DNA from: an uncultured Veillonellaceae bacterium
GTDB lineage: Bacteria; Bacillota; Negativicutes; JARBTT01
Assembly (NCBI GenBank): GCA_963805085.1
Contig: CAWDTA010000004.1
Coordinates: 224,001-288,000 of the forward strand
DNA: 64,000 nucleotides
Direction: 5' to 3'
Shown: in pieces, positions 829-9,252 of the stretch
Layout: every line of letters starts with the position of its first letter
How positions within the stretch are numbered: position 1 is the stretch's first letter
The notes under the pieces: model-generated
What the model saw: only the letters and a program-made list of their open reading frames with translations
The model's database searches: none
What the model was told of the DNA's origin: nothing
Made by a program: the position numbers and the translations under genes

Positions 829-900
829 ATTATTATAAGTAAAACGATATCATATAAGTAGTCACTTATATAAAATTAAAAATTGAAAGGATTCAATTGT

Positions 901-1563
901 ATGAATTTATTATTGGTAGAAGATGAAGTAAAGCTAAGTGAGTCTCTGACTGTATTAATCAGCCGTGCCGGTTACACCGTTGATACTGCTTTAGATGGCT
1001 TAAAAGCTTTAGAAAAAATTAGAAATAATGAGTATGCTGTAATTATTTTAGATCGAATGTTACCTTGTTTAGATGGACTATCTGTATTACAGCAAATGCG
1101 TAAAGAAAAAAACAATACACCGGTTTTATTCTTAACGGCGAAAGATTCACCTTCGGAGCGTGTTGCTGGTCTAGAAGCTGGGGCTGACGACTACTTAATC
1201 AAACCATTCTTTACCGAAGAATTACTAGCAAGAATCAAAGTATTAATTAAACGTGTAGAAAAGAAAGCACCTGAAGGCGTTATCGAAGTCGCAGGTATCA
1301 CGTTATATACACTGCATGGCGAAGTCATCAATGGCAAAGAAAAATTCCAGCTCACAGTAAAAGAAGCAGCTTTGCTGGCACTTTTAATGAGCAATAAAGG
1401 GCAAGTCATCACCAAAGAACGTATTATGGAAAAAATTTGGGGCTATGATAGTGAAACGAATATTGCGAATGTCGATCTCTACATCTATTATTTACGAAAA
1501 AAATTAAATATATCAAATATCAAAACTATCCGTGGCATTGGTTACTGTTTTGAGGAGGAGTAA
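901..1563 (+). CDS. OmpR/PhoB-family response regulator (CiaR-like)
   Basis: LLVEDE, LDRMLP, LTAKD, GADDYLIKPF receiver; winged-helix end IKTIRGIGY. Confidence 0.95.
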   Translation: MNLLLVEDEVKLSESLTVLISRAGYTVDTALDGLKALEKIRNNEYAVIILDRMLPCLDGLSVLQQMRKEKNNTPVLFLTAKDSPSERVAGLEAGADDYLIKPFFTEELLARIKVLIKRVEKKAPEGVIEVAGITLYTLHGEVINGKEKFQLTVKEAALLALLMSNKGQVITKERIMEKIWGYDSETNIANVDLYIYYLRKKLNISNIKTIRGIGYCFEEE

Positions 1564-1566
1564 CTG

Positions 1567-2829
1567 ATGTTTAAAAAACTTCGCCTAAAATTAACTCTAA
1601 TCAACGTAAGCGTAATCGTAACACTATTTATTATTTTAAGCATCAGTTTATATGCCCTCTTAAGAATGAGTTCTCAACAAGGCACGATTTTTATGCTACA
1701 AAAGATAAGTGATGATGTTAAATATGACGAGAATTTTGAATTTCCTGAACATAAGAAGCCAGAAAAACCACCTAGCGATTTTACTGGCTTCATGCCACCA
1801 CCAAAACCAAATTTCTTCTTTGTAAAAGTTGCAAATAATGGAACTGTCCTTATGCATTCTACTGGTATTACGGTTACCGACTCGCAACTTCCAGAATTAA
1901 TTCATATCACAGCAGCAAAAAAATTAGATATGGACACCATTAATTTTGAAACTATTCCATTTGCTTATTTGCGAACCTATTTACCAGAGGAAAACTGCAC
2001 ACTGCTTGTATTTAACGATAAATCTGAACAAGAAGAACATATGAATCAACTGATAACCCATCTCTTACTGGTAGGTCTAGTTTGTAGCTTACTTTCATTC
2101 TTCGCAAGCTTTTTCTTAGCGAAACACACGATCAAACCAATTCAAGCTTCACTAGAACAACAAAATAATTTTGTTTCTGATGCTTCTCACGAGCTTAGAA
2201 CGCCAATTACGATCATTCAGACGAATTTAGATATCATCAAAGGTGCGCCACCTCACGAAACAATTGCGGATAATGAAAAATGGCTGAACAATATCCAAGA
2301 TGAAACCACCTGCATGACCGAACTTATTAATTCCTTATTATTCTTAGCACGGGCTGATGCCAACCAGCAGCTAATGGAAAAAGAATATTTCCCATTAAAT
2401 CCGACAATCTTGGATGCCATTCACCCTTTTGAAGTTATAGCCAAAAGAAATAATATTACACTTACGACAGATATGAATGGCCAAGTTACGGCTTTAGGAG
2501 ACTCTATTCGCCTTAAGCAGGTTCTTACGATACTGATTGACAATGCCATTCGCCATACACCAAAGCACGGTAGCGTCGTTGCTGGCTGTCATACCAAAGA
2601 TGATGCCATCTATATTACCGTTACCGATACTGGTGAAGGTATCGCGAAAGAACACCAACACAAAATCTTTGATAGATTTTATCAGGTTGACGAATCTCGC
2701 CATAAAGGCGGTTCTGGACTGGGCTTATCGATTGCCCAGTGGATTATTGAACAACATGGTGGAATGATTGGTGTGAAAAGCACCGTAGGTAAAGGTACAA
2801 CTTTTACAATCAAATTACCAACAAAATAA
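1567..2829 (+). CDS. Sensor histidine kinase (2 TM, HisKA, HATPase_c)
   Basis: FVSDASHELRTP, ILIDNAI, DTGEGI, GGSGLGLSIA. Confidence 0.95.
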   Translation: MFKKLRLKLTLINVSVIVTLFIILSISLYALLRMSSQQGTIFMLQKISDDVKYDENFEFPEHKKPEKPPSDFTGFMPPPKPNFFFVKVANNGTVLMHSTGITVTDSQLPELIHITAAKKLDMDTINFETIPFAYLRTYLPEENCTLLVFNDKSEQEEHMNQLITHLLLVGLVCSLLSFFASFFLAKHTIKPIQASLEQQNNFVSDASHELRTPITIIQTNLDIIKGAPPHETIADNEKWLNNIQDETTCMTELINSLLFLARADANQQLMEKEYFPLNPTILDAIHPFEVIAKRNNITLTTDMNGQVTALGDSIRLKQVLTILIDNAIRHTPKHGSVVAGCHTKDDAIYITVTDTGEGIAKEHQHKIFDRFYQVDESRHKGGSGLGLSIAQWIIEQHGGMIGVKSTVGKGTTFTIKLPTK

Positions 2830-3280: not shown

Positions 3281-3410
3281 ATAAATTCCTTCTAATACAT
3301 TAATTTGATAAAACACCACAATATCTACTACTAAATAACATTTTCAGCTAAAAGTCATACAATTTCTACCATTATTATCTTCTACATTTCTTTTAAAAGA
3401 GTTTGAACAT

Positions 3411-3462
3411 AAAAAATGTTAGAGATTGTAGCCTTTAAAGGAATACGATCTCTAACATTTTT
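3411..3462 (-). terminator. Intrinsic terminator
   Basis: aaaaaatgttagagat / atctctaacatttttt. Confidence 0.75.
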
Positions 3463-3476
3463 TGATTTTCTAACTA

Positions 3477-3863
3477 TTAACATACCATATATGTAATTTC
3501 ACTATCGGCCGTATACCCAAACGGGCGATAAGTAAGTTGATCATTACTTAATTCAACGCTATAAGCCGGGCCAATCATTGTAACAATTTCACTAGCTGCT
3601 GTTGACTCATAACTTTTTGACTCGGTCGCTGAAGTTACTGATTTTACTTTTGAAATCTGATTGTCGACATCTTCAATTTGCTGTTTTAACGTAGAAATCG
3701 CAGCTGTATTATCTTTATCATCACTCGCTGCTAATTGATTCATGTGCTGTTGCATGGACGCCTTCCGTTTTTTTGAAGACATCAAGAGTACTTCCTTACT
3801 GTCTGTACTATAACTCTGATACGTGCTGTAACTACTAGTAGGTGAAACACTATTAATTTTCAT
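3477..3863 (-). CDS. FlxA-like small Ser/Thr-rich coiled-coil protein
   Basis: MKINSVS start, central heptad region, C-terminal AYSVELS motif; paralog of 2930-3280. Confidence 0.65.
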   Translation of the reverse strand: MKINSVSPTSSYSTYQSYSTDSKEVLLMSSKKRKASMQQHMNQLAASDDKDNTAAISTLKQQIEDVDNQISKVKSVTSATESKSYESTAASEIVTMIGPAYSVELSNDQLTYRPFGYTADSEITYMVC

Positions 3864-3918
3864 GTTATAGCCCGCCTTTCAATCTAAACTATTTTAAAAT
3901 CGAATACTTATAGTACTT

Positions 3919-3973
3919 ATTATGCAACTCTTTTTTTTGAAATGACTTTGATTTTCCTTTGATTATTATTTGA
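3919..3973 (-). promoter_or_regulatory. Four TCAAA direct repeats (11-bp period) plus -10 CATAAT
   Basis: Plus-strand TTTGA at 3936, 3947, 3958, 3969; ATTATG at 3919-3924. Confidence 0.7.
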
Positions 3974-4017
3974 TTTTTAAAATCAGGAATATACTCCTTG
4001 TCTTTGATCTATACACG

Positions 4018-4171
4018 AAAAAATCAGGGCCTATGGATAGCCCTGATTTTTTCAGAATAAGAATAATTTGGGTGTGTGTGTGATGTTGTGAGTCTTTGGA
4101 CAACCGAGGTTGTCCTGTTCTAACTTGTGTGAGTTAGAAGTGTGTGTGTGAAATAAATGAGTCAATCTACA
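4018..4171 (-). ncRNA. Candidate CA-repeat small RNA (~150 nt)
   Basis: Own promoter (4178-4221), two hairpins, four UCACA tracts, terminator 4018-4052, no ORF. Confidence 0.55.
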
Positions 4172-4177
4172 ATTATT

Positions 4178-4221
4178 ATTATGCTATACTTTTCTTTGAA
4201 AATCCTTTGATTTTCCTTTGT
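4178..4221 (-). promoter_or_regulatory. Three TCAAA/ACAAA direct repeats (11-bp period) plus -10 CATAAT
   Basis: TTTGA 4195 and 4206, TTTGT 4217; ATTATG 4178-4183; same geometry as 3919-3973. Confidence 0.7.
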
Positions 4222-4309
4222 CTTTCATTTATTTGTACATTTATTTTTCTTTTTTTACATTTAAAATACTTAATTCACGCACTATGATACCATCTTATTT
4301 AAATAGTTT

Positions 4310-6247
4310 TTATTTTGCCATTAATTGCGCTATTTTGTTGGCAAAGGCAATTGGATCTTCCGGCAAGATCCCTTCGATTAATAATGCTTGTGTATAAAGT
4401 AAATCGCAATAATCCTTGAACGTATCAGAAGTCGCATCTTGATTAAAAATCGCTTGCAAACGGCCAAACAATTCATGATGTGGATTAATTTCTAAAATAC
4501 GGCGCGCTTTAAACATTGGATTGTTTGCTTCAGCAAAAACTTGTTCCATCGATAAACTAATCCCATTGTTGTCACTGACTAGGCACACTGCACTAGCTTT
4601 TAAGCGATTACTAATTTTTACATCGGCAATTTTATTATCTAAGGTTTCTTTAATTGCTTTGATTAAACTTTCATTATCTTTAGCAATCGTTTCAGCTTCT
4701 TTCTTCACTTCTTGTGCTTCTACGTCATCTAATTCTAAATCACCACGACTAACTGAATGAAATTTCTTATCGCCATATTCGCGTAATGCTTCAATCGCAA
4801 ATTCATCGACAGTATCGAATAAGTATAATACTTCAATACCTTTTTCTCGTAACAATTCCATTTGTGGTAGACGATCAATGGTTGCAGGATCTTTCCCTGT
4901 TGCATAGTAGATTGCTTTTTGGCTTTCTGGCATACGTTCTTTATATTCTTTTAAGCTTGTTAAGCTAGAACCTTCTTTCGAAGAAGCAAATAGCAACAAG
5001 TCTTTTAATTTCGCACTATCTTGTGGGTTTGTATAAACACCAATTTTAAAGGATTTACCAAATTCACCCCAGAATTTTTCGTATTTTTCACGGTCTTTAT
5101 TGAGCATTTTTTCTAGTGTTTTTAAGACATTCTTTTCAAGGTTTTTACCAATTAATTTGAGTTCACGACTTTGTTGTAATAACTCACGAGAAATATTTAA
5201 AGAGAAATCTGGTGAATCCACAAGTCCACGAACAAATCTCAAGTAATCTGGTAATAATTCTTGACATTTTTCCATGATGAATACATGACGAGAGTAAAGT
5301 TGAATACCAGCACTGTACTCTGCATGATATAAATTATATGGTGCATGCGTTGGAATGAATAAAATGGTTGTATATTCTACTGTACCTTCTGCTTTTGAAT
5401 GGATAATTTCCATTGGTTCTTCCCATTCATGGAATAGATTTTTGTAAAATTCATTATATTCTTCTGGCTTAATATCGTTTTTATTTTTTGTCCAAAGTGG
5501 CTGCATCGAATTTAATATGCGTATTTCATTGCGTTTTATTTTCTCTGCACCTTCGATTGGTTTGCCTTCTTCATCTTTTTGTTCTTCTTCAACAATAAAA
5601 TTCATTTTGATTGGAAAACGCACATAGTCTGAATACTTTTTAATTAAACTTTCTAAGGTATAAGTTTGCAAGAAGTTTTCTTCGGCCTTTTCGCCAAAGA
5701 ATTCTGGTAATAATGTCAAAATAATTGTCGTTCCACGATCAGCTTTTTCCGTTTCTTCAATGCTATAGCTGCCATCTCCAGTAGATTCCCATTTAACCCC
5801 TTTGCTTTCGCCAGCTTTACGCGTAATCAGCGTTACTTTTTCTGCTACCATGAAAGCAGAATAAAAACCAACACCAAATTGACCGATCAATTCTTTATCA
5901 GAAACCGATTCTTTTTGTTCTTTTAACTTTTCTAAGAATGATTTTGTACCCGATTTTGCAATTGTACCAACATTTTCGATAACTTCATCGTAAGTCATCC
6001 CAATCCCATTATCAGAAATTGTTAACGTATGGCTTTCCTCATCAGGAACTAAGTAAATTTCAAAATCAGATTTACCTTCTAATAATTCTTGATTGGTAAT
6101 TGATTCGAAACGAATTTTATCAATTGCATCCGATGCATTGGATACCAATTCCCGTAAAAAGATCTCACGATTCGTATAAATTGAATGAACCATTAAGTCC
6201 AATAATTGTTTCGTTTCTGCTTGAAACTCGCGCATTTCTTTTGCCAT
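4310..6247 (-). CDS. htpG: Chaperone HtpG (Hsp90)
   Basis: FQAETKQLLDLMVHSIY, FLRELVSNASDA, IGQFGVGFYSAF, LNISRELLQ. Confidence 0.98.
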   Translation of the reverse strand: MAKEMREFQAETKQLLDLMVHSIYTNREIFLRELVSNASDAIDKIRFESITNQELLEGKSDFEIYLVPDEESHTLTISDNGIGMTYDEVIENVGTIAKSGTKSFLEKLKEQKESVSDKELIGQFGVGFYSAFMVAEKVTLITRKAGESKGVKWESTGDGSYSIEETEKADRGTTIILTLLPEFFGEKAEENFLQTYTLESLIKKYSDYVRFPIKMNFIVEEEQKDEEGKPIEGAEKIKRNEIRILNSMQPLWTKNKNDIKPEEYNEFYKNLFHEWEEPMEIIHSKAEGTVEYTTILFIPTHAPYNLYHAEYSAGIQLYSRHVFIMEKCQELLPDYLRFVRGLVDSPDFSLNISRELLQQSRELKLIGKNLEKNVLKTLEKMLNKDREKYEKFWGEFGKSFKIGVYTNPQDSAKLKDLLLFASSKEGSSLTSLKEYKERMPESQKAIYYATGKDPATIDRLPQMELLREKGIEVLYLFDTVDEFAIEALREYGDKKFHSVSRGDLELDDVEAQEVKKEAETIAKDNESLIKAIKETLDNKIADVKISNRLKASAVCLVSDNNGISLSMEQVFAEANNPMFKARRILEINPHHELFGRLQAIFNQDATSDTFKDYCDLLYTQALLIEGILPEDPIAFANKIAQLMAK

Positions 6248-6282
6248 TCTATAAACCCCTTTACCTTAGTTATTTTTCATTG

Positions 6283-6309
6283 TTAGCACTCTGTGTCTGT
6301 GAGTGCTAA
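6283..6309. promoter_or_regulatory. CIRCE element (HrcA operator)
   Basis: Perfect TTAGCACTC-N9-GAGTGCTAA upstream of htpG. Confidence 0.97.
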
Positions 6310-6386
6310 CCCTATTGATAATAATAACTCTATTTGGCATTTAAATCAATATCTACAAGGCTTTTTTGTATAAAATTTTATTAATC

Positions 6387-6632
6387 TTAATGGTCTGGGG
6401 ACGAAAAATTTTTACACGTTACGTTTTTAAGCCAACTCATATGCAATATAACATGAAGAAGTATTGCTATGGTCATGATATACCCAGTCCAAATATGCAT
6501 TTTTTTCACCATCATACCTATTTCCCTTGTGCTCGCAAGATGAAAATCAATGACATAACCCGTACTTAGACATCCCACGCCAGAAATTAACAAGATAATA
6601 TCCACCCAATAATTTTTCATTACTTTTGTCAT
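6387..6632 (-). CDS. DUF4405-like small membrane protein (His-rich, cytochrome b-like)
   Basis: NYWVDIILLIS..STG..; MHIWTGYIM..LLHVILH..W; RBS GGAGG. Confidence 0.7.
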   Translation of the reverse strand: MTKVMKNYWVDIILLISGVGCLSTGYVIDFHLASTREIGMMVKKMHIWTGYIMTIAILLHVILHMSWLKNVTCKNFSSPDH

Positions 6633-6829
6633 ACTATTTCAATCCTCCAATATGTCTTTTAAAATTATAGTTAGAATATACCATTTATGTATGACAATTC
6701 AATGACAATATTTATATTTACGGGACTAAACATAACATTTATTTATGTTTATGCTATAATAGAACATTAATATGATAGTAATATTCTATTGCAAAAATTT
6801 AATCAATCATTTTTAGGAGGATACTTATT

Positions 6830-7269: not shown

Positions 7270-9252
7270 TTAAACATTAAATTTATTTACTTCATTTTGT
7301 AAATCTTGTGCTAGTCTTGCCAAGGATTGACTGGCTGTAGTCATCTCATGCACAGAAGCCGACTGTTCTTCAGTTGCCGCCGAAACCGTTTGTGCTTCTT
7401 CTGAGGTTGCTTTACTAACTTGATGAATATTTTTCGTAGAATCATCAATTTGTTTCGCACCATCTGTAATCTTTTCTACTGAAACTTGGGCCAATTTCAC
7501 TCGATCATTAATCAAAATAACCATCTCATCAATTTCTTTAAAAATGTTACCAGCATTATTTACAATTTCGGCCCCATGTTTCACTTCATCGGTTCCATTA
7601 TGCATTGCATCAACTGCATGATCTGTGTCTACTTGAATTTGATGAATAAGTATCGCGATATGTTTTGCCGCTTCTTGTGACTGCTCAGCAAGCTTTCTCA
7701 CTTCTTCCGCTACAACTGCGAAACCTTTACCTTGTTCACCCGCCCGCGCCGCTTCAATTGCTGCATTTAATGCCAATAGATTAGTCTGCCCGGCAAGCCC
7801 AGAAATCGTATCTACAATTGCCCCGATTTCTTTCGAACGATCGCCCAATCCTTCCACTACTTGCGCGGAAACTCCAACGACAGATTCAATACTTTTCATT
7901 TGCTCTACAGCCTCTGCAACTGCTTGATTGCCTAAATTGGCTTTTGCTGCCGCACCAGACGCTTGTTCAACAACACGCTCTGTATTTGTTATCAGTTCTC
8001 TAATATTCTTACCAATACTTTCAACTTCTTGGGTTACTGTATCAATAGCCATCACTTGATTATCTGCCCCACCTGCTACATTCGTAATCGACTCAGCAAC
8101 CTGTAGAGATACTTGTGCCGATTGTTCCGCACTTGCCGTTAATTCCTCACTGGCTGCAGCAACTTGTTCAGCTGAATTGCTCACTTGTCTAATTAATGAT
8201 CCCAAAGATTTACGCATTTGAATCAAAGAATTATCAAGTCTGCCAATTTCATCATTACGATCTTGTATTTTCCGTTCAGTTTCTCTAAAATCACCATTTG
8301 CAAGTCTTTCTGAAAGCTCGGTCATTATTTGCATAGCATTTGTAATCTTCAAAATAGCCCACAAAATAATACCACCAAGCAATAACGCTATGATAAATGT
8401 ACCAATCGCAAAAAAGATTGCCATTTCATGAACCCCTGCAAACATTTCATTATAGTCCATGGATATACCAAGAACCCAACCACTATTGCCAACTGATACA
8501 CCACCGATGATTTTCTCTGTACCTTCAAACTCAATTGTTTGTACTACGTCTTCTCCTTTAGAAACACGGTCAAAAAAATCAGCTAAAATTGCATTATCAA
8601 CATTTTTAATATTGTCTTCACTTTTAAATTTAGGATGGGTAATAAACGAACCGTTTCTTGCTACCAAGAAAGCATACCCTGTGTTACCAACTTTAAACTC
8701 TTGTACTTTCTTTAATAGTTCTGTTAAATTTACATCATCACAAATCGAACCTTTTAAATTACCATCACTATTCATAATACGCTGACCGAGACTTACGACC
8801 ATACTATTATCCGAACCACTTTTATATACTTCTGTATATAATGGTTTATCTTCCTTAATACTGTTTTTATACCAATCTCTTTGCCTTACATCAACACCTG
8901 GCGGATAAGTCGTATTGTTACTAATTGCATATGTACCATCTTCTAAGCCAATCGTAATATTTAATGTCGTTTTACTTGCACCATCTTTAGTTAAATGAGT
9001 TAAAGTTTTAATTTCATCTAGGGTCAAATTTTGTTTACCGATCAGCACTGTTAAATGCTTAATTTGACTTTCTTCTTGTCTTAACTCATTATTTAATTGT
9101 TCACTATATGAATGCAACATATTACGATTTGTTTCTATAATTTGTGCTTCCATTTGATTTTTAGAAGTGTAATATCCGTAAAAACTCAACAAACTTACGA
9201 ATACTAAAACTGGAGCTAAAATCATGATTAACATCTTTGTTTTTAAATTCAT
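7270..9252 (-). CDS. Methyl-accepting chemotaxis protein (dCache, HAMP, MA)
   Basis: [34 protein letters not shown]; RDWY Cache motif. Confidence 0.95.

Follow-up and report, generated by a model that had tools for sequence, protein, structure and literature searches.

A predicted small RNA gene behind htpG in Negativicutes with a promoter of the two-component type

Small regulatory RNAs (sRNAs) linked to two-component systems (TCSs) are known from Firmicutes like Listeria, where LhrC is linked to LisRK, and the Bacillales, which have RsaE/RoxS; these RNAs carry several redundant pyrimidine-rich motifs in loops or single strands and are of the multi-seed kind. Other sRNAs lie at the 3' end of a gene and use its terminator, either with a promoter of their own, as in the DapZ or MicL type, or through processing, as in CpxQ. 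The DNA analyzed here, a stretch of 64,000 nucleotides (nt) from an uncultured Veillonellaceae bacterium (Negativicutes; contig CAWDTA010000004.1, positions 224,001 to 288,000) that we call the window, encodes a predicted sRNA directly behind htpG, with a regulator-type promoter and an OmpR-family TCS close by. The described RNAs to which it is best compared are the csRNAs, which the CiaRH system drives in streptococci. The csRNAs are 50-200 nt long and are preceded by two hexamers 5 nt apart, lying 10 nt from the -10 element, and followed by a terminator, the CiaR repeat reading (N)TTAAG-N5-TTTAAG (PMC3091779). Our best reading, drawn by analogy, is that the locus represents a new family of TCS-driven, trans-acting sRNA that would resemble the csRNAs without being a member, with the mechanism and targets deduced.

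The predicted sRNA is laid out on the minus strand as follows.

4018..4171, minus strand: predicted sRNA of ~154 nt, bounded by the inferred start (4171-4168) and the last base of the U-tract, by sequence reading and fold
4140..4171, minus strand: 5' single-stranded region including the first CA repeat, TCACACACACAC (4151-4140)
4118..4139, minus strand: hairpin 1, TTCTAACT / loop CACACA / AGTTAGAA, an 8-bp stem with a C/A-rich loop
4098..4115, minus strand: hairpin 2, GGACAAC / CTCG / GTTGTCC, a 7-bp stem with a tetraloop
4054..4097, minus strand: 3' single-stranded G-poor stretch, with CUCACAACA, the second CA repeat and then an A/U-rich run to the terminator
4017..4053, minus strand: Rho-independent terminator, 14-nt arms (4053-4040 and 4030-4017) that are 100% complementary, then six U

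In the 3' stretch, CTCACAACA precedes the second copy of TCACACACACAC (4083-4072, minus strand). All three helices (hairpin 1, hairpin 2 and the terminator) are present in both the minimum-free-energy and the centroid folds of 4171-4014. The fold energy is -43.3 kcal/mol vs. -19.6 +/- 3.5 kcal/mol for 200 dinucleotide shuffles (z = -6.8), and 0/200 shuffles were as good. The unpaired bases of the sRNA in the source genome (G000; 4.21 Mb, from an assembly that is 83% complete) are A31 C30 G4 U19. Runs of (CA) of at least 9 nt occur at about 10 places in that genome, two of them here, 68 nt apart, while chance would give ~0.002 such pairs by a rough estimate. The gene is single-copy, as BLAST against its own genome returned only itself, a copy of its promoter and its own terminator. 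A preliminary description of the locus had listed the CA repeats, the hairpins and the terminator, and every one of them is present on the minus strand where it was placed. The sequence reading and the fold likewise bear out the view that this is an unannotated, structured, terminator-ended non-coding unit.

A small protein could in principle be made from the locus, as a 37-codon frame with a TTG start exists (4165-4052). However, the frame has no ribosome-binding site, meets a stop at codon 10 in a genome of the same genus (G001) and has no start codon in the more distant G004, and 1-2-nt indels are common among homologues. No open reading frame (ORF) is conserved, we regard a small protein gene as barely credible, and the earlier remark that the element has no ORF is right in substance. 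Among known RNA families, no Rfam 15 model found a gathering-threshold match in the whole window, and a permissive search of 3850-4350 gave eight matches, all with E >= 0.32, the best-scoring being rli36 with 18.7 bits vs. a threshold of 50 (E = 1.4). No such regulatory RNA in Negativicutes was found in Rfam 15 or in the portion of the full-text literature that was accessible, where an unnamed entry in a catalogue of non-coding RNAs may exist.

The promoter and the genes that bear on it are arranged as follows.

4188..4220, minus strand: response-regulator-type box, three 11-bp direct repeats beginning CAAAG (at 4220-4216, 4209-4205 and 4198-4194)
4178..4183, minus strand: -10 hexamer CATAAT, 10 nt downstream of the last CAAAG
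3917-3971, minus strand: second promoter copy, 259 bp downstream and in front of a 128-amino-acid (aa) ORF, with 80% identity over 55 nt
3477..3863, minus strand: that 128-aa ORF, P0001, of no known family, behind the second promoter copy
883..1563, plus strand: OmpR-family response regulator, Pfam Response_reg and Trans_reg_C, likely start ATG at 901
1567..2829, plus strand: sensor histidine kinase, Pfam HisKA and HATPase_c, convergent with the sRNA

The predicted start of the sRNA at ~4171-4168 follows from the position of the CATAAT hexamer (4183-4178). The TCS-type promoter that had been claimed for the RNA is real in sequence, with CAAAG direct repeats at a set distance from CATAAT and an OmpR-family system adjacent. 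The regulator falls below every NCBIfam equivalog cut-off, and no curated equivalog fits either the regulator or the kinase. In the whole 4.2-Mb genome the pattern of three repeats plus CATAAT has two matches, both at this locus (one match for the reversed-pattern control). The pattern of two repeats (<= 1 mismatch) gives 1-3 matches per genome vs. 1 for the reversed control, and the perfect match is always the RNA promoter. The second promoter copy, also present in G001 and on two metagenome contigs (L057 and L061), has the same 10-nt spacing between box and -10 as the sRNA promoter, as does the promoter of an efflux operon elsewhere in the genome. G001, G004, G019, L057 and L061 have the two promoter-proximal repeats in identical or nearly identical form. 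Conservation across three GTDB families covers the box, the -10 and the 15 nt with which the transcript would begin; the spacer between htpG and the sRNA, by contrast, ranges from 58 to 138 nt, and judged by that difference, the sRNA promoter is likely under selection.

The efflux operon is among the matches of a scan of G000 constrained by geometry, in which two half-sites had to lie 11 bp apart and a -10 element 9-11 nt further. Its 27 matches comprise nine copies of an unrelated repeat, nine sites inside genes, one site antisense in a gene and eight intergenic sites, and the last include the sRNA, P0001 and a box at C3:148587, 78 nt before the gene for a TolC-like outer-membrane efflux protein (OEP).

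C3:148587-153000 of G000 (locus L094 4587-8971): efflux operon of four genes, for the TolC-like OEP, an HlyD-type adaptor, an ABC ATPase and a MacB-type permease

The box, with its 10-nt spacing, stands before this operon or the orthologous OEP gene in all four of the sRNA-bearing genomes (G000, G001, G004 and G019). It is also found before the best OEP orthologue in G318, whose regulator is 75% identical. Because G318 has box and efflux gene with no detectable RNA, the link between regulator and efflux looks older than the RNA. A box and spacing common to the sRNA, P0001 and the efflux operon would give the sRNA an own promoter of the regulon type. Since the sRNA, the efflux operon and a small ORF have the box in common, the RNA likely belongs to an envelope/efflux-type regulon of a diderm Firmicute.

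Some further observations were made around these boxes. Paralogous regulators (52-55% identical) lie beside CAAAG-repeat sites in L054 (G124; ~7950-8900) and L053 (G057; ~5800-6700). Downstream of the G124 site lies the gene of a protein with a signal peptide and the ending ...ITLTF, by its look a small outer-membrane beta-barrel; the protein encoded downstream of the G057 site has internal repeats. The box scan also met a repeated ~60-nt intergenic element with at least nine copies on C2 and C3 of G000 (e.g., C2:1350114, 1357115, 1806718, 1809495, 1934937, 806038, 803582 and 269111; C3:110080); by a crude gene list, with starts sought within 500 nt, a gene start lies 235-364 nt downstream in 6/9 copies. 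The minus strand of the window has, between 2971 and 3863, the small ORFs P0001 (128 aa) and P0002 (listed with 100 aa), which are both rich in Ser and Gln and look like coiled coils. No family match was obtained for either, and a P0001 homologue was found in G001 alone among five genomes searched.

Homologues of the RNA are few and keep a common setting. BLAST with the 219-nt promoter and RNA against 401 genomes of the class found the element in four (G000; G001, 86%; G004, 79%; and G019, where the match covers the promoter and 5' end, 81%). The other 25 of the 29 BLAST-positive genomes had short matches only (22-70 nt, E >= 7.7e-5), and none of the 16 places read has an RNA body; some of these short matches resemble related regulator boxes (G006, G057 and G124). 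When metagenomes were scanned with a promoter-to-start pattern, nine loci were recovered, four with the RNA (L057, L061, L064 and L065) and five unrelated. The L064 copy is cut off, and L065 is identical to G019 over a 107-nt stretch of the RNA. A promoter-pattern scan of the genome collection had the G001 contig as its sole match. A covariance model, built from six distinct homologue sequences, gave full-length matches in the same four of 150 genomes plus L057, L061 and L065. A partial match in G068 (E = 4.7e-5) was rejected, as it follows a tRNA gene and is without the box, and a match in G107 is weak (E = 0.007). The model found no match in five genomes with regulators 59-75% identical, nor in their fetched neighbourhoods, and no such RNA was seen in the G318 neighbourhood when it was read by eye. 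The narrow distribution, four of 401 sampled genomes, limits the reach of the finding.

The upstream neighbour is the same throughout.

4310..6247, minus strand: htpG (Hsp90 family; Pfam HSP90, E = 6e-131), directly upstream of the sRNA on the same strand
6283..6309, minus strand: perfect inverted repeat TTAGCACTC-N9-GAGTGCTAA, downstream of the htpG promoter and before the start codon

All eight loci, from four genomes and four metagenome contigs, directly follow an htpG stop codon; in G000, G004 and G019 the distance from this stop to the sRNA start is 58-138 nt, and on L057, L061, L064 and L065 the stop is visible just upstream of the RNA. Orthologues of the regulator (96, 89 and 73% identical in G001, G004 and G019) and of the kinase are 1.4-2 kb from the sRNA in all four genomes. 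In G004 and G019 htpG is followed by the RNA and then by the kinase and regulator genes, which are convergent with it; the RNA alone separates htpG from the kinase gene, whose end is 96-117 nt from the sRNA terminator. As no gene follows the RNA on its strand in these two genomes, a role as leader or attenuator, for example for P0001, is ruled out. G004 has an ~80-nt palindrome (L043 7800-7885) in the interval that separates the sRNA terminator from the end of the kinase gene, and this palindrome may be the terminator of the kinase operon.

The plan of the RNA is conserved along with its setting. Homologues have ~30 unpaired nt, one or two hairpins, ~20-45 unpaired G-poor nt and the terminator. 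In the six-sequence alignment 94.7% of cells pair vs. 34-55% with slid partners, and six pairs change on both sides, a number reached in 0/500 shuffles. The stem of hairpin 2 is invariant in the five homologues that have it, around four different loops (CUCG, UUCG, UUUA and CUUA). G019 is without hairpin 2, and there both internal hairpins are replaced by one unrelated hairpin in the same place (GUACUUA/UAAGUAC, loop CCUCAC). The best-conserved transcribed parts in the six homologues are the first 15-18 nt and an ACAC..CCA..UU..UCUUAUUC run before the terminator. Invariant columns at the 5' end (alignment A2) are T1 G2 T3 A4 G5 A10 C11 C13 A14 T15 A18, and this region is unpaired in the folds of all six homologues, a weak local hairpin aside. 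Conservation of the hairpins in relatives had been set beforehand as one of the points on which the preliminary description could fail, and both the element and its arrangement were found to be conserved.

Given the above, we think it quite probable that the RNA gene is real and conserved and that its promoter carries a regulator box. The whole explanation, that this is a TCS-driven sRNA gene acting in trans by base pairing, appears to us somewhat better than an even bet. Under this scenario an sRNA of ~154 nt would be made from its own promoter and ended by the strong intrinsic terminator. The neighbouring OmpR-family regulator would activate this promoter by binding the CAAAG repeats 10 nt upstream of the -10. 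A second input may come from htpG transcripts that end in the same sequence and look to be controlled by HrcA and CIRCE. The RNA would act in trans, its G-poor, C/A-rich single strands (the conserved 5' end and the pre-terminator stretch) pairing with U/G-rich segments of mRNAs, and Hfq would probably assist, bound at the A/U-rich run and U tail. The sRNA does carry such a run and tail, which presumably resemble the Hfq-binding modules of other sRNAs, and hfq was found in the four relatives searched (G001, G004, G019 and G318).

The second input rests on the htpG side of the locus. We take the inverted repeat at 6283-6309 to be the CIRCE/HrcA operator consensus, and if it really is CIRCE, htpG is a class I heat-shock gene here. 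No terminator-like site was found between the htpG stop (4310) and 4171, and in every locus read htpG is without its own terminator, so the sRNA terminator probably also ends htpG transcripts, and the sRNA sequence probably also forms the 3' end of htpG. With htpG lacking a terminator and carrying a CIRCE-like operator, the RNA could arise from two inputs, a kinase signal and heat shock.

Several results weigh against the explanation we favour, and the first concern expression. Eight RNA-type libraries were found, with small shares of the query words; four, from at least four studies, were examined. They were chosen with this stretch as query, and the data are assembled contigs that are uninformative on strand, ends, level or depth, with one run that may be DNA. 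In all four libraries short contigs of close relatives cover 4018-4239 at ~95-97% likeness, each with 4-11 differences from the window. Cover is absent at 3300-4010 and over most of htpG, gaps that carry no information on expression.

Library X1: contig spanning 4031-4239
Library X2: contig spanning 4080-4234
Library X3: contig spanning 4081-4234
Library X4: contigs spanning 4018-4188 and 4075-4221

The contigs reach 4234-4239, ~65 nt upstream of the predicted start, and one from X4 joins 4204-4234 to 4301-4365 in htpG. As they cross the start, and one is linked to the htpG 3' end, read-through from htpG is likely. The pattern would be expected equally from such read-through, from DNA carry-over and from an own promoter, and the claim of a discrete ~150-nt transcript, distinct from an htpG 3' untranslated region (UTR), is not borne out. 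It is consistent with these contigs, and with the missing htpG terminator, that there is no independent RNA and that the sequence is an htpG 3' UTR and terminator serving mRNA stability or termination, its box having another role such as a roadblock or read-through control. Yet a good -10 follows the box at a constant distance of 10 nt, two ordinary units (P0001 and the efflux operon) have this module in front of them, and conservation across families extends to the box, -10 and first 15 nt and not to the htpG-proximal spacer. Moreover, the htpG genes of the other sampled Negativicutes do without the element, and we find the 3' UTR explanation rather improbable. Also on the debit side, the regulator is linked to the box by their co-occurrence, and its binding there is presumed.

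The same weighing has to take in the thinness of the covariation and the behavior of the CA repeats. The alignment has six distinct sequences, and five of the compensatory pairs are in the terminator, which leaves one in the internal hairpins (hairpin 1, UA to CG in G004 and to UG in L061). The repeated CA motifs, put forward earlier as the design of the RNA, are not strictly conserved: G001 no longer has the 5' repeat, and in G019 the two repeats are shortened. These motifs bear on another possibility, that UCAC/(CA)n motifs titrate an RNA-binding protein (a KH-domain protein or a face of Hfq) whose availability would be under TCS control, by the logic of CsrB, RsmZ or CrcZ. TCS-driven decoy RNAs are a known kind, every homologue has two to four UCAC motifs unpaired or in loops (4, 4, 4, 3, 2 and 2 in the six), and the C/A-rich character of the hairpin-1 loops survives replacement of the stem, as seen in G019. 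The unpaired regions are almost G-free, and no convincing mRNA targets were found, as would suit a decoy. However, the number of UCAC motifs is low and variable and does not exceed a composition shuffle in G004 (P = 0.21) or G019 (P = 0.10), and the best-conserved transcribed part is the 5' end, which is no repeat. The 5' CA repeat is absent from one member of the genus. A protein with a preference for CA repeats was not identified here, and we know of none in bacteria. A decoy seems unlikely to us. Membership among the CsrA decoys of the CsrB/RsmZ type was rejected, the sRNA having a single GGA motif, which is buried in the stem of hairpin 2.

Searches for targets and for Hfq also weigh against trans action by base pairing. 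When RNAduplex was run against 4,705 crude start regions, the top energies were no better than those of shuffled seeds, and ungapped matches of at least 10 nt at start regions numbered 152 and 149 vs. 61-180 and 54-153 for shuffles. A LacI-type gene (C3:124294) gave the best and longest duplex, of 22 bp, and was rejected, as the energy weakens from -25.9 to -13.4 kcal/mol in G004 and G019 has no orthologue. Similarly, hfq was not found in the 83% complete assembly of G000 itself.

Other candidate targets were tried and set aside. A match of 10 nt links the efflux-operon leader to RNA nt 3-12 within the genus (G000 and G001) and is missing in G004 and G019; the leader ranks 80 of 4,705. The htpG start region pairs weakly (-9.6 and -11.2 kcal/mol). 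It is suggestive only that ribosome sites of the GGAGUGUG type occur at 11 of the 4,705 starts, the efflux operon included. Separately, a gene in G000 with POTRA_2 and POTRA_3 domains (C1:1101-1850, locus L076), of the type of an outer-membrane partner in two-partner secretion, has GUGUGUGUGAU in its mRNA immediately behind the start codon, where 11 nt match the second CA repeat of the RNA perfectly; this is a single match.

The partner of the C/A-rich stretches could also be another RNA, in which case the stretches would act as a sponge absorbing a G/U-rich regulatory RNA. C/A-rich, G-free single strands suit such a role, and GcvB of enterobacteria provides a precedent, as it is reported to interact with C/A-rich targets and with the SroC sponge (PMC4474525, PMC3879156). 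On the other side, no G/U-rich sRNA was identified here, and the few other genomic GUGUGUGUG sites are scattered, with no extended match at those examined. We consider a sponge very unlikely.

A bolder combination of these elements joins two stress pathways in this RNA. The tail of HrcA-controlled htpG and the kinase promoter would converge on the same RNA, whose nearly G-free (CA)n/UCAC strands, rather than being anti-Shine-Dalgarno (anti-SD) seeds, might be a protein decoy (for a KH protein, say, or for Hfq of the Firmicute type with a face that reads dinucleotide repeats) or might seed pairing at U/G-rich sites of mRNAs for outer-membrane or efflux proteins. We hold this combination as a whole to be speculative and unlikely. 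If true, it would give Negativicutes their first described riboregulator, one whose recognition code is unlike the C-rich seeds of other Firmicutes.

Under the favored explanation, a TCS-driven sRNA acting in trans, the locus is a compact module, with one kinase-regulator pair, one DNA box, three predicted outputs (the sRNA, the MacAB/TolC-like efflux operon and a small protein) and a link to htpG. Confirmation of the RNA would open riboregulation in the Negativicutes, the outer-membrane Firmicutes. It would also show how an efflux/envelope regulon gained an sRNA arm in one sub-lineage, as the link between box and efflux reaches the sRNA-less G318.

How the predicted sRNA compares with known systems can now be stated. 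The CiaRH/csRNA analogy of the preliminary description holds for promoter geometry and fails for membership. The promoter geometry is identical, and both have a terminator and stem-loops flanking unpaired stretches (PMC3091779). The hexamers differ, being TCAAAG/TCAAAG here and not TTTAAG, with the G that is reported to be essential present and the TT absent. In addition, the regulator here reaches no equivalog cut-off, the host is a Negativicute and not a Streptococcus, and the gene is single-copy whereas streptococcal genomes have two to six csRNA genes. The unpaired parts of the sRNA also have no anti-SD run of the CCUCC or UCCC type, unlike csRNAs, with only a CAU conserved at nt 13-15. 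Membership among the csRNAs is rejected on hexamer sequence, regulator, host and the missing anti-SD run.

The other comparisons are also partial. The motifs of LhrC, RsaE and RoxS are UCCC/CCCC and aim at the Shine-Dalgarno sequence, whereas those here are CA/UCAC, unable to pair with GGAGG, and the RNA has no Rfam match. With the DapZ/MicL type, the likeness lies in an RNA at the 3' end of a gene, here htpG, with a common terminator and a second promoter that is independently regulated; the promoter here comes after the stop codon and not within the coding sequence. With OmrA/B and OmpR, and with MgrR and PhoP, the predicted sRNA would have in common that an OmpR-family system co-controls both an sRNA and outer-membrane or efflux genes, here the TolC-like/MacAB-like operon. 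The conserved 5' end, the A/U-rich run with its U tail and the presence of Hfq in relatives are further points of likeness. The OmrA/B and MgrR RNAs have no sequence relation to the one described here, whose host is a Firmicute with an outer membrane.

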